This document shows, in pieces, positions 1 through 60,399 of a stretch of 64,000 nucleotides of DNA. Origin of the DNA: Amoebidium appalachense (Eukaryota; Protista; Ichthyosporea). The notes under the pieces were generated by a model that was not told where the DNA came from, did not search any database, and saw only the letters and a program-made list of their open reading frames with translations. The stretch's first letter is position 1, and each line of letters starts with the position of its first letter. Both the position numbers and the translations under genes were made by a program. The stretch spans positions 322,130-386,129 of the forward strand of contig CAVNZM010000019.1 of the NCBI GenBank assembly GCA_963693365.1, given 5' to 3'.

Positions 1-435
1 AAAATTGACTGGTTATGATACAGTATTGATGTGATGTGAACGTCGCGATTTACAACACTCCAAGCACGCCAATTTGAAAACAAAACCGAAATATTAATTT
101 GAAAACAATACAGAAATATTTAAACCCGATTTATACGAACATTTTTGCCATTGTTTTCCTATTGAACAGGTTGTTGTTTTAGTTTCTACTCAGAGTTCGG
201 AAAAGCGACTCGCGGTCAGGGTTATAACCGAATTGGGATCCCTGAAACAAAAACCCAAACAAAGATTGAAAAAACGGACCCCCATCCACAACAGACCCAA
301 GCTCTGTTTAGTTGTTTTTGCGCCGAAGGACACTTTCGCACCCTGGCAAAGCCACTGGGACCAATCAAATTGGCTATAGGACCCATATAACACCATCACT
401 GCTTCGGATGCTGCCAGTCTTGCAAACCTGCAGCT

Positions 436-1452
436 ATGAACCACAAGCCAAACGTTAACCTGTGGCGCCTGCGCGACAAGCTCTTCCAAGCGACAACACC
501 GGCCAGCGAGGCAGCGCTCATGGGCGTTCCCGTCTTCGGCGAATTCGACATGCACTCGCCCCCAGCCAACATGCACTCGTTCCCCGCCAACACAAAACCT
601 GCACGCGCAATACCGCCCAAAGACGACTGCGTGCATGCACAGCCTTCCCAACCCCCTTTTGCAGTTGTGCACGCACCGCCCCTGTGCAGCAAGGACGTGC
701 GAGTGTACCCGTTGCAGACAACATGGCCACCACCACCGGGCAAGATTCCGCTACGCAGGATTCTCCCGTACAAGACTTCAGGTGCTGCGGCCAGCGACGT
801 GGAACAAAAGCAACGGGATGTATTTTATTGGAAGGCAGGGGCGAATCCAAGTAGATGTGGACGGTACTTACGCAAAAACAAGATGGGGGCCTCCAAAAAA
901 CTCACCTCCCCGCGCCTACCAGTGGCAGTCAACGCCGAACCCAACGCGCCCTGGCGACCACTCTCTTTTCCGGATTTGGACACGGAAGAGACCACAGAGG
1001 CAGCGGATAGGGAGAACGCAGCAGCGCCCCCAAGCAGCCAGGTGTGCGAAGCAGCAGCGCCCCCAAGCAGCCAGGTGTGCGAAGCAGCACGCGAGCCGCT
1101 CGTGTACGAGGACCACAGTTCCGTCGACGTCGACGACCAGGTGGCCTTCACGGGGCAGATGGTATCCACGAGCAGCCCCCAGTCGGAGACAACGGGAGAG
1201 CAGTGCGAGATCTGGGTGTCTGTCGATCGATCTCCGCACCCCCCATACATCTACTACAACGTGAAGCATGTCATAGTGCAAGTAACAAACAAGGGTTCTA
1301 AAATACACATCGCATACGAGGAGGCCTCCTCCAACCAGCTGTGGCAACTGCAATTTAAGGACAACAAGAAGCCTTTGCATGTAGTCATAGGAGGCAATGG
1401 AGAAAACACTGTTGCGGTGAATGAGGTGTGGGTGTGCATTCGACCAGGATAG
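436..1452 (+). CDS. Hypothetical protein, 338 aa, Pro/Ala-rich with a beta-rich C-terminus
   Basis: ATG-to-stop ORF preserved at identical length in copy 50376-51392; CCAAT and TATA-like motifs upstream; internal AAAPPSSQVCE duplication. Confidence 0.7.
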   Translation: MNHKPNVNLWRLRDKLFQATTPASEAALMGVPVFGEFDMHSPPANMHSFPANTKPARAIPPKDDCVHAQPSQPPFAVVHAPPLCSKDVRVYPLQTTWPPPPGKIPLRRILPYKTSGAAASDVEQKQRDVFYWKAGANPSRCGRYLRKNKMGASKKLTSPRLPVAVNAEPNAPWRPLSFPDLDTEETTEAADRENAAAPPSSQVCEAAAPPSSQVCEAAREPLVYEDHSSVDVDDQVAFTGQMVSTSSPQSETTGEQCEIWVSVDRSPHPPYIYYNVKHVIVQVTNKGSKIHIAYEEASSNQLWQLQFKDNKKPLHVVIGGNGENTVAVNEVWVCIRPG

Positions 1453-1962
1453 TGGTGTGGGGTGTTTGCTGGGTGGGTGAGTGTGTATGGGAGAGAGGAA
1501 TGCTATACCCGTAATATAGACAGGGCAGTGTGTACAAGTACCACAATGTGATATGCTATGATATGCCCCAACCCATACATGTGCAAATGTGCAAACCAGC
1601 GCAAATATCCCATCGTTTGTTTCTTACGATGTCTTCTCGTAAGCACGATTTGGTGCAAACATCATCTATGTATCTGAATCCTAACATGTAAGCGAGACTT
1701 CACGACAGCAAGAGTGAATAAACGCAAAAGTCAATACATAACCACACTTGGACGTATCTGAAACATGCATGTGCGTATGTGTGTGTGGTGTGCATGTGTG
1801 GTGTGTGTGTGTGTGGTGTGTGTGTGTGTGTGTGTGTGTGGTGTGTGTGTGTGTGTGTGTGTGTGTGTGTGTGTGTGTGTGTGGTATGTGTGTGTGGTGT
1901 GTGTGTGTGTGTGGTGTGTGTGTGTGCCTGTGTGTGCGTACAGATGTACAGATGCCAAGTCT

Positions 1963-57624: not shown

Positions 57625-59817
57625 TCACTCACTATCACTGTCCGCAATCACCACAACATCAACGGGGCCCTCGGGCTTCTGCAGGCGGGCGACCTTGCGC
57701 TTCCGCCCCAGCCGCCCGCGCTGCACATACACGTCCAGCTGGGTCTGCCCCTTGAGCTGCTCGCCGCGCTCCACCAGCGGCTCGTTGAGGCTGACGGTGC
57801 GCCCGAGCTCCAGCGGCTCGATGTCGGGGAACTTGTCCTGGATGGCCTCCAGCCACGACGCCAGCTCGACGTGCACCTCGTACTCGGCAGCGCCCGTGTC
57901 CGCGTTGTTGATGGTCGACTGGCGCAGCACCGGCGCCTTGCAGTACTCGACGTACCAGCGCGTGTAGTTGTAGACAAAGGTGTACAGCTGCTGCGTGGTC
58001 ATGTCGGTCGAGTACTTGGGCTCCTCGCCGGTCCACAGCCGGATGCGCTCCTTCATGGCCTTCTGCAGCCCGGTGGTGGCGATGATGTTGGAAATCTCCC
58101 CCGACTGGAACACAAAGCACACGCCCGTGGTGGCCATGATCATGCCCGTGTACGTGCTGGCGCAGCGCACGCCTTCGCCGTACAGCGTGTCCACGCACAC
58201 ATACGCGAACGCGCGCGTCAGGCGCTTGAACTTATGGTTGTCCGTGTACGTGCCGCCGGTTGTGAGAGGCATGCGGGTCGGGAGGGTGAGTGGTTCGAGC
58301 TTCACGCGGGCGAGAGCGGCAGCGAGGGTGGCGAGTGCCTCGGCCTGGGCGGCCTCCGCGGCCTCCTTGGCTAACTCGGCAGCCATTTTGTCGCCCATGG
58401 CCTGTTCCCGCTCGGCGGCCACAGCGGCCGCGTTTGCTTCGGACGCAGCAAGGGTGGCGCGCAGGGCAGAAACGGCCTCGTCCTTGCTGTTGGCGGCCAG
58501 ACGGGCAAAGGCATTCTTGACTCCAAGGACCCAGACTCGGACTGTGTTGCCGATCAGGGTTGGAGATGCCAGAGCAGCAACAAGGAAGCCATCGGCAGTC
58601 AGCAGGTGATCCATACCAGGACGACCTCCAGTGCTCTGCATTTGTGGTCGTTTAGTTAGGTGTCGAGCAGCAAGAGAACTTTAGCGCCCTGATCCGGGAA
58701 AGTGATGACGTCACTTCACCAATCAAAACTTTTCAGCCACAAAGCTGAAAAGTGATGACGTCACCTCACCAATCAAAACTTTCCCGCTCTAATCCGTAAA
58801 AGTGATGACGTCATATGATACCCACAGAGCCAATCAAACATTTCCCGGCAGCTGCCAAATCGAGTCACCAATTTTTTTCCATACAAATAGTATGACGAGT
58901 ATCCAAATGAGCGCAGATACCATAGCGCGCAAGTATGGGCTCTCAAGAAATAGAATGACTGAGAATGTAATACGGACCATAAGACGACTGGGCTGGGTAC
59001 AGAATGTAGATTACAGAGTTACAAGAGTACGCACAGGCAGCAGGGGCTTGCCGGGCAAATCGTTTTTTCTAACTGATCGTGCTTACAACAAACTGGCCAA
59101 AAGGCTCGAACAGACTCTCGGAAAGAACCAGTCAGAAAAAAAAGATCTGTGAAAATCTACAGAAAAGAGAAGGGGGCGCGAAAAGAACAGTGCCTGCTGG
59201 AGAAATCGACTTGTTGACAGATAGCGATGTAATTGAAGTGAAGAATGTCCGGTCATGGAAACATGCACTTGGGCAGGTTCTTGTCTATGGAAAGTACTAC
59301 CCCGGTCATCGCAAACGAGTCCACTTATTTGGTAGAGCGCCCAACTCGTTCTACTTGTTTGTCATAGAGTCACTAATGGAACACGGTGTAATTGTGTCCG
59401 TTGAACCAGGTTGTTGTGATGCAGTTTACATATCAAGAAATTTGACAGGCTCATCCAAAAGCAAGCTCGACATGCTAGCCACGGTTGCACTTGCGACAGA
59501 GGGATTGTACATACCTCCATCTCGACAACACGGTAGTTTCCGACCGGAACAAAACCAGACGACCCCTTTTGCCCCTTGAACATGGCCCTCACAAAGTCTT
59601 CGTAGCGGCCGTACCCCAGCAGGCGGAACACGGCGCGCCCGGAGATGGTCTCCTTGCAGTCATACAGGAACGGGTCGAGGAAGCGCAGCACCTTGGCCAC
59701 CACGTCGTCGCCCACGGTGCCCAGCAGGCGCTCGAGCTCGGGGGAGATGGGAGGGAAGCCGGCCTCTTTGGCACCGGCAATGTTGAGGCGCTCGTAGATG
59801 GCATAGGTGGAAGCCAT
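57625..59817 (-). CDS. Spliced MSV199/AntA-like gene (exon 1 59817-59515, exon 2 58635-57625)
   Basis: GAG|GTATGT donor, CCTAAC branch, ATGCAG|AGC acceptor; the junction reads YRVVEME|STGGRPGMDHLLTADGF. Confidence 0.8.
58699..58845 (+). promoter_or_regulatory. Three CRE+CCAAT modules upstream of the nested nuclease, inside the intron
   Basis: aagtgatgacgtca…ccaatcaaa repeated three times. Confidence 0.5.
58892..59579 (+). CDS. Divergent intron-nested antisense PD-(D/E)XK nuclease; one extra A in an A8 run near 59140
   Basis: ORF pieces join as …KNQSEKKICENLQKREGG…GEIDLLTDSDVIEVKNVRSWKHALGQVLVY…RVHLFG. Confidence 0.75.
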
Positions 59818-60399
59818 GGTCGCTGGTGGAAGAGTTGGGGCTTTGGGTTTGGGGGTTGAGTGCTGTGTGTGTACCGTCACGAAGGTGCTGGCTGTCCAGC
59901 GCTTGCTGTGTTTATATAGGGAGGCGTCCGGCGCTTCATTGGTTGTACGCTTCATTGGTTGTAGGAGGAGAGGAATGGAATCCAGCATTCGATTGGAGAG
60001 GATTGCAAGAGAATACTGGTCCCAGATGATTGGGTCGATTTGTTCGGCGCTACGTGCACTTTTTACACATATGGCCCTGACCAATCGAATGCTGCATTCC
60101 ACCCCCCCCCAATGAAGCGCTGCTTTACGGTGCTCACACACCCGTCACAACCCCTAGTGCCAACTTTTCAATTCTAATTGATAATAGCGCTATCATCGGT
60201 AAGTAGTGTGTGTGTGTGTGTGTGTGTGTGTGTGTGTGTGTGTGTGTGTGTGTGTGTGTGTGTGTGTGTGTGTGTGTGTGTGTGTGTGTGTGTGTGTGTG
60301 TGTGTGTGTGTGTGTGTGTGTGTGTGTGTGTGTGTGTGTGCATAGCGCTAGAGTTGTGTAGCGCTGAAAGCGAATTATGAAGGTAATACAGCAATTGCA

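Follow-up and report, generated by a model that had tools for sequence, protein, structure and literature searches.

The E gene family and its intron

We analysed a 64,000-nucleotide stretch of contig CAVNZM010000019.1 of Amoebidium appalachense (hereafter the window, whose positions are used throughout), which is present in 20 of 24 listed sequencing runs from four studies; the runs listed as containing it include no RNA run, which has no bearing on expression. It carries a repeatedly copied gene block that is probably an endogenous DNA virus and that includes a gene family, E, exon 1 of which occurs in six copies. A phase-0 GT-AG intron lies at one site, just before S/T-x-G-G/L-R, in all five E copies with both ends, and four of these five introns have a CTAAC branch point. 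The intron signals (GTGAGT..CTAAC..CACAG and GTATGT..CTAAC..TGCAG) are those of a spliceosomal donor, branch point and acceptor. A search of the window against Rfam gave no match to any family, so the introns show no group I/II signature or other intron-encoded RNA structure, and their ends pair over at most 8 nt.

In three of the copies (E1a, E1b and E2) the intron holds an antisense gene for a predicted PD-(D/E)XK-fold nuclease, of which there are two types, N1 and N2. E1a (7321-9211, minus strand) consists of exon 1 (9211-8912), a 616-nt intron (8911-8296) containing N1, and exon 2. E1b (35405-37301, plus strand) also houses N1, in a 613-nt intron (35705-36317), and E2 (57625-59817, minus strand) houses N2 in an 879-nt intron (59514-58636). 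E3a (18487-19368, plus strand) comprises exon 1 and a nuclease-free intron filled with ~92-bp TGACGTCA repeats, cut off just before the acceptor. E4 (34102-34730, plus strand) has exon 1, a 220-nt nuclease-free intron (34405-34624) and a short exon 2 that ends early; its intron contains repeats of cAMP-response-element (CRE) and CCAAT words that resemble the N2 promoter. Downstream of E4 and outside the introns, positions 34860-35000 resemble the region upstream of N2. The remaining copy, E5 (14842-15100, plus strand), is a broken exon 1 fragment with the same donor site.

A distant paralog of the family, gene D/C (3915-5655, minus strand; C exon against E1a, E=9e-6), carries a nuclease-free, phase-0 GT-AG intron with a (CA)n tract near the E-intron site (4926-4638, and 55192-54683 in the second copy), and the frame is kept in both copies. 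A mini-exon model for D/C failed on frame and was replaced by this single intron. The frame-keeping introns of E and D/C agree with the GT-AG introns proposed in an earlier interpretation made from the letters without database searches (the sequence-only reading).

In run X17 the E1b intron is skipped exactly by two contigs, which go directly from 35702 to 36316 and leave out a segment with GT..AG ends; no such contig was found in runs X2, X7 and X8. X17 was typed as DNA by a tool guess. Its depth over a Ngaro retrotransposon described below is skewed towards the 3' end (ratio 6.9 versus 1.1-1.9 in other runs) and it has few variant contigs, which hints that X17 is RNA, contig depth being a weak guide. 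An RNA origin of X17 would mean that the gene is transcribed and its intron removed by splicing, a DNA origin that there is an intron-free allele. The intron boundaries are confirmed either way.

An exhaustive search with E exon 2 returned eight matches among 1.84 billion representatives, seven of them credible and one a repeat artefact, and a word-index search with the same exon found nothing. The homolog P0060 carries both E exons in one open reading frame (ORF) and, like the X17 junction, could be spliced RNA. P0053 (KAI9549629.1), from a 183-kb contig of a Daphnia sinensis assembly, matches exon 1 up to the same point and then reads into repeats, and P0058 (EFX61890.1) is an E-family gene from a D. 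pulex assembly. The 183-kb contig may hold a fuller element. P0059 was discarded as a repeat artefact.

By eye, the split E domain resembles winged helices of the MSV199/antirepressor type. E was missed by a profile of three winged-helix sequences; with a 15-sequence profile, one member of which is an MSV199 match, it scored above all column shuffles (0 of 25-30 reached it) at low probability, and because of that low probability the MSV199-type label is tentative. Pfam gave no MSV199, KilA-N or Bro-N match on any window ORF, on any exon or on the unsplit homolog P0060. The sequence-only reading had named such domains; at the level of family thresholds these labels are not supported, and the similarity seen is a weak one, by profile, to an MSV199-linked family. 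The structure model of E exon 2 is poor (pLDDT 46) and fold searches with it were uninformative.

Predicted nucleases nested in the introns

The nuclease N1a (8362-8973, plus strand) is 203 amino acids long, lies antisense in the E1a intron with its tail overlapping exon 1, and contains residues E78, D102, E111 and K113. N1b (35643-36254, minus strand), antisense in the E1b intron, is 95% identical to N1a, with a dN/dS of 0.29 (p=0.012). N2 (58700-59579, plus strand), antisense in the E2 intron, is split over two frames, the break lying within an A-run near 59.1 kb, and has a CRE/CCAAT promoter array at 58706-58806. Within the nuclease domain, N1 and N2 share 57% identity and their synonymous sites are saturated. 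N1 has a TATA-like word at -21.

The structure model of N1 reaches a pLDDT of ~97 over residues 81-170, the nuclease domain. Its best structural match in the PDB is NucS (Z 9.3, root-mean-square deviation 2.5, 87 aligned), and the top 12 rows are mostly restriction-fold nucleases; a Foldseek search of N1 against the PDB gave no match at E<=0.001, and PDB sequence searches with the nuclease and E alignments found nothing. When the BFVD structure collection was searched with the same model, all seven matches at E<=0.001 were giant-virus proteins. Residues D102, E111 and K113 are invariant in 27 sequences, and the core is of the restriction fold with an E..D..ExK motif. The structure thus confirms for N1, a predicted nuclease, the PD-(D/E)XK fold that the sequence-only reading had supposed for nucleases of this block. 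Viral relatives of the nuclease were found at 46 loci, from which 34 ORFs were extracted and 22 scanned, revealing KilA-N in 9 of the 22 and Rha in 3.

Another relative, gene W (47413-48045, plus strand; hhalign 81.5%, E=1e-5), lacks the acidic/Lys motif and appears to be fused to a D5-type winged helix (Pox_D5, E=0.002, below the cut-off).

Helicases without a primase domain

We identified a tandem pair of superfamily 3 (SF3) helicases. D5a (44529-46064, minus strand; 511 amino acids) is a DUF5906 protein without a primase domain, and D5b (46143-47312, minus strand), 55% identical to it, lacks the C-terminal domain of a close relative, P0001. Of 44 relatives found, the top nine match at 33-57% identity and contain no domain other than DUF5906; eight of these are unnamed and one is labelled only by the DUF5906 family. 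Together with D5a, D5b and P0052 they form a 12-row clade among 76 rows (SH-aLRT 99) in a quick tree that includes near-duplicates and several long branches. One clade member, P0006, has ~150 extra N-terminal residues with HUH-like motifs by eye and no Pfam match there. More distant relatives are mostly longer primase-helicase fusions, and the sole PDB relatives (6k9c, 6k9e and 6lrb) are labelled primase and come from NrS-1. The sequence-only reading had called these proteins D5-like SF3 helicases; the SF3 assignment stands, and by domain content they are of the DUF5906 type and not primase-helicases in the D5 style of nucleocytoplasmic large DNA viruses (NCLDV). A weakly placed neighbour in the tree, L140, is a 15-kb IMG/VR contig with a DUF5906 helicase, an A32 ATPase and an adenine methylase; that it is Polinton-like is our own reading.

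Copies, arrays and palindromes

After 10,803 bases of tandem repeat had been masked, self-BLAST of the window showed that 49903-60201 repeats 1-9592, so that the visible part of the 49.9-kb-offset repeat is only ~9.6 kb. The first copy (1-9592) holds genes A, B, K, D/C and E1a and a promoter and is 93-95% identical to 49903-56604. The second (49903-60201) holds A, B, K, D/C and E2. Identity is 93-95% in blocks A, B-K-C and D, with ordinary substitution spectra. Unlike these blocks, the last gene pair, E1a and E2, is only ~66-75% identical, while E1a (7320-9214) has an inverted 94% copy, E1b, at 35402-37298. Because of this discrepancy we regard the window as a mosaic of diverged, rearranged paralogous copies with inversions and not as a clean 49.9-kb period. 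The duplication at that offset was noticed in the sequence-only reading and is real; the intervening DNA shows no second period.

Arrays of (TG)n/(CA)n mark the segment borders. Two units make them up, U1 with 11 copies and U2 with nine (one partial), and these units are found in either orientation. The array at 9593-11340 alternates (TG)n tracts with the conserved 87-nt U1 and has an inverted copy at 63063-64000; that at 15294-18075 combines (CA)n tracts with the 228-nt U2 and has inverted copies at 56792-57329 and 7061-7264. Other segment borders are formed by AT-rich palindromes, six in all, which fall into two related families. The palindrome at 14017-14813, whose 175-nt arms are 99% complementary and contain CCAAT/CRE-like words, is a candidate origin or enhancer. 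Three tandem palindromes at 60341-62869 belong to its family, and two at 40166-41130 to the second. All six palindromes have CCAAT/CRE-like words in their arms and look like origins or enhancers; they may also be miniature inverted-repeat transposable elements.

Several genes show purifying selection between copies (p<=0.012 in each case): dN/dS is lowest in E1 (0.20-0.26), followed by N1 (0.29), C (0.43) and D (0.47). Most copies were therefore still functional as they diverged.

An error-rich paralog and inserted retroelements

A third paralogous block (20550-28204) includes the start of an F-box gene, B, C, D, a promoter and the copy E3b, with its intron at 27271-27578. It is rich in errors. 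Of the bases missing relative to the intact copies, 44 of 66 and 79 of 124 are T, against a T content of 23% and 32% in those copies; in 20550-22700, T makes up only 6% of the bases. Ten listed short-read contig pieces in this block (runs X2, X7 and X8) differ from it by 0-5 substitutions and 12-58 gaps each. The block is a real paralog whose apparent decay is mostly base-calling error, with T selectively dropped. Biological decay, which the sequence-only reading had assumed for this third copy, is rejected on the skew of the missing bases towards T and the many gaps and few substitutions of the short-read contigs.

An error-rich segment is what one might expect if the window held ordinary host gene families compounded by assembly artefact, and two E-family matches do come from Daphnia assemblies. 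We consider this explanation very improbable. The intact copies differ by substitutions under purifying selection and are for that reason not assembly duplicates, the helicase and nuclease have relatives that are viral or unannotated and not ordinary cellular genes, and gene E has only seven credible matches in the large search described above.

The third block is interrupted by a Ngaro-type tyrosine-recombinase (YR) retrotransposon (28205-33665, minus strand) with gag, reverse transcriptase (RT; Pfam E=9e-19) and YR (E=6e-8) and with split direct repeats (A1 33665-33317, B1 28862-28774, A2 28773-28425, B2 28294-28205). It lies in exon 2 of E3b, looks complete and has a contig depth far above that of its flanks. 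Contigs join 28204 to 33665, the empty site, in all four runs compared (at most three samples). A second insertion, a high-depth host repeat (19369-20536, minus strand) with short inverted termini and a purine tract, is long terminal repeat (LTR)-like in our reading. It interrupts E3a a few bases before the splice acceptor and ends where the error-rich zone starts, and contigs join 19368 to 27573 in three of four runs. Neither insertion, nor the intron-nested antisense nucleases of the E family, had featured in the sequence-only reading.

The insertions of Ngaro and the LTR-like repeat into the block indicate that it resides in the nucleus with host transposons. Nuclear residence would also suit a virus or episome that persists unintegrated in the cultured organism, acquired host retrotransposons in the nucleus and came out of the assembly as a concatemer. 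The window contains no host gene or junction, most genes are intact, CpG is not depleted (observed/expected 0.86-0.90), and an episomal mirusvirus in Aurantiochytrium is reported in the available part of PMC12606086. However, two retroelement insertions, several broken genes and long (TG)n tracts in introns fit chromosomal residence, as do transitions ~twofold higher at CpG in three of four copy comparisons, and the copies differ by 5-30%, more than expected of one episome. We hold an episome to be improbable.

Other genes and promoter words

Pfam was run on 237 of 303 stop-to-stop ORFs of at least 90 amino acids; the 66 dropped were mostly tandem-repeat ORFs. Outside Ngaro, the informative matches were the two DUF5906 SF3 helicases, a SET domain and C2H2 fingers, with sub-threshold matches to F-box and Pox_D5. 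Genes A, B, D, C, E and H and the N-terminal region of the SET gene matched nothing in Pfam, PHROG or NCBIfam, and an exact sequence look-up found none of nine window proteins.

Gene A (436-1452, plus strand; second copy 50376-51392) encodes 338 amino acids. Gene B (2099-3143, minus strand) is Cys/His-rich, with frame breaks in low-complexity runs and paralogs at 52.1-53.1 kb and 23.7-24.5 kb; the ESM Atlas held nothing usable for B or for E exon 2. Gene G (11519-13190, minus strand) has two overlapping frames, a coiled coil, a weak BAG-like match and a Bro-N-like look by eye only. Its 5' region contains a 330-bp local duplication (13032-13359 and 13516-13853). Gene H (41345-41977, minus strand; 210 amino acids) also has a coiled coil, and profile scores of G and H were not above those of shuffles. 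A large gene in two overlapping frames (37623-39907, plus strand; break near 38.5 kb) ends in a SET domain (Pfam E=6e-5, above the cut-off). It has acidic repeats and, by eye, an unconfirmed chromodomain-like stretch; a PDB sequence search of the SET region found no chromodomain or SET structure. The genome stretch further encodes a C2H2 protein with five zinc fingers (43491-43973, minus strand; Pfam E=1e-17) and an F-box-like protein of 488 amino acids (48161-49627, minus strand; E=0.003, below the cut-off). At 42251-43004, two overlapping minus-strand frames with hydrophobic stretches are possibly a membrane protein with a frame break.

Promoter words were counted in repeat-masked DNA outside 19369-33665 and compared with 100 shuffles. 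The motif TGACGTCA occurred 9 times (0.9+/-1.0 in shuffles), CCAATC 72 times (26.5+/-5.6) and the TATA-like word 27 times (4.4+/-2.5); TATA-like, CCAAT and TGACGTCA words, motifs already noted in the sequence-only reading, exceeded all 100 shuffles. Of 19 tested starts, 14 have a TATA-like word no more than 200 nt away (three of the 19 start coordinates are slightly off the ATG). TGACGT precedes only one of the 19 within that distance, and its 21 copies are those of the intron arrays and palindromes.

Nature of the block

Given the virus-type genes, the RNA polymerase II (Pol II) promoter motifs, the spliceosomal introns and the insertions of high-copy retrotransposons, we propose, with a probability of roughly 0.6, that the block derives from an integrated DNA virus that replicates in the nucleus and relies on host Pol II and the spliceosome for its expression; one of its introns carries an antisense predicted endonuclease that may drive homing. 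The sequence-only reading had favoured an endogenised, nucleus-transcribed virus or a giant transposon; that outline is partly supported, whereas biological decay of the third copy, MSV199/KilA-N/Bro labels at family-threshold level and a D5 primase-helicase of NCLDV style are not.

Host Pol II and the spliceosome would express the genes of the block. Loading of the SF3 helicase may take place at the AT-rich palindromes, with host enzymes serving as primase and polymerase, for which papillomavirus E1 offers a precedent. Divergence of the copies would have occurred during replication, after which segments may have been flipped by recombination at palindromes and at (TG)n/(CA)n arrays lying in inverted orientation.

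Several results count against this proposal. In accord with the lack of recognisable virion genes noted from the letters alone, no capsid, PolB, packaging ATPase (A32), terminase or transposase was detected in the 237 ORFs by Pfam, and no capsid, PolB, terminase or A32 ATPase among 25 selected proteins by PHROG and NCBIfam. For the helicase, the E family and the palindrome motif, IMG/VR scans gave no close relatives, some matches reaching only 23-35% identity. No flanking host gene or integration junction is visible in the window. For genes A and B, dN/dS is 0.69-0.90 (A, 0.80) and purifying selection is not significant, and the MSV199-type similarity is weak (hhalign probability 9-10% for E and 65% for the nuclease N-termini). 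The nuclease relatives in viral contigs are continuous ORFs.

VLTF3 and a double jelly-roll capsid were not found in the 237 ORFs, the element ending outside the window. HK97 capsid, terminase, portal and triplex gave no matches with profiles that did not include mirusvirus ones, in a partial window whose genes may be intron-split. Polinton-like viruses and adintoviruses measure ~30 kb or less. Their set (capsid, packaging ATPase, pPolB or fused primase-helicase, terminal inverted repeats) was not found, and the block exceeds 30 kb but is mosaic. Giant transposons of the Plavaka/KDZ type are marked by a transposase and intron-poor clusters of YR genes, of which the ORF scans gave only the YR of Ngaro.

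The lack of any virion gene in ~50 kb of non-retrotransposon DNA could instead reflect a capsid-less giant mobile element, such as a large transposon or a nuclear plasmid-like replicon, that collected viral genes and was amplified by helicase-driven replication and recombination. The multiple copies rearranged at microsatellite arrays and the host-type SET, C2H2 and F-box genes fit such an element, and giant non-viral repeats of up to 50 kb are described in Amoebidium in the accessible text of PMC11244446. Yet the nuclease family is viral, the window scans found no transposase or integrase besides Ngaro's own YR, and endogenous viruses often lack core genes according to the same portion of that source. 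We judge a capsid-less element unlikely.

With an endogenous virus as the preferred reading, the role of the intron can be considered. The nuclease would cut intron-free copies of gene E and repair would copy the intron in, E3 and E4 being stages of nuclease loss. We propose homing tentatively, as somewhat less likely than not. It sits less easily with the inactive-looking paralog W, which stands free beside the helicase pair, and with the D/C intron, which suggests that the intron is older than the nuclease because it lies near the same site and is nuclease-free. Otherwise, the nuclease may be a selected viral gene parked in an older intron.

A broader claim is rather doubtful: that the block belongs to a group of large nuclear DNA viruses or replicons not described before, whose SF3 helicase lacks a primase and works with host polymerases at palindromic origins. 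On this view the homing intron sits in a gene that is not structural, and a single, repeatedly sequenced organism contains every stage of its cycle: two types of nuclease, loss of the nuclease and an intron-free form. If this broader claim is true, the homing of nuclease-carrying spliceosomal introns termed shintrons, so far inferred from metagenomes, becomes directly testable. A small nuclease of 203 amino acids, under purifying selection, lies in an intron of an organism that several studies have sequenced, next to paralogs whose introns contain another nuclease or no nuclease at all; a single purified protein and a short DNA substrate would therefore be enough to put homing to the test. The block further suggests that there is a lineage of eukaryotic DNA elements that lacks close IMG/VR relatives as well as the marker genes of standard endogenous-virus screens.

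Comparison with known systems

The Ngaro copy is an ordinary member of its kind and a passenger in the block. It shares the RT, the YR and the A1-ORFs-B1A2B2 layout that defines Ngaro in the consulted part of PMC8547959, which also reports insertion of Ngaro into endogenous viruses. The window helicases share the DUF5906 core with NrS-1-type SF3 primase-helicases of phages and Polinton-like viruses (PDB 6k9c, L140), and differ from them in lacking a primase domain, forming a separate clade and occurring as a tandem pair.

In the accessible text of PMC11244446, the giant repeats of Amoebidium fall into three kinds, namely giant endogenous viral elements, adintoviruses and Plavaka. The first and the last of these are called intron-poor there, and the viral kinds carry VLTF3, A32, D5 primase and capsid genes. 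The block resembles these repeats in being a gene-dense viral island with many diverged copies, secondary transposon insertions and incomplete core genes. Unlike them, it lacks VLTF3, A32, D5 primase and capsid, and its genes carry introns. The available portion of the main text of 10.1101/2025.04.19.649669 has no mention of Daphnia, Ichthyosporea or Amoebidium.

The nuclease domain is 35-56% identical to that of KilA-N/Rha-fused nucleases from Mimiviridae, Tetraselmis virus 1, phaeoviruses and phages, with which it shares the D...ExK and WKxALGQ motifs. In contrast to those proteins, the window nuclease lies antisense in a spliceosomal intron and is fused to a divergent winged-helix-like domain.

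Full-text literature searches for such nuclease-carrying spliceosomal introns returned PMC12768974 alone. Shintrons, as presented in its accessible sections, are spliceosomal homing introns of mirusviruses, of the GT-AG type with a nested endonuclease (15 PD-(D/E)XK cases), described from mirusvirus metagenomes, with homing proposed and not demonstrated. The E introns likewise are GT-AG introns without a group I/II signature that nest an endonuclease gene. In four of five rows of the supplement the nuclease is antisense to its host gene, judging by gene names (the fifth row has no gene id). The differences are that the window nuclease is 203 residues long versus 345-563, that several intron states occur in one genome region, that no mirusvirus hallmark gene was found in the window, and that the host gene is winged-helix-like and non-structural, whereas all five rows are capsid genes. 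Nuclease-carrying spliceosomal introns are thus known from mirusviruses, and what is new here is such an intron in a non-structural, winged-helix-like gene.

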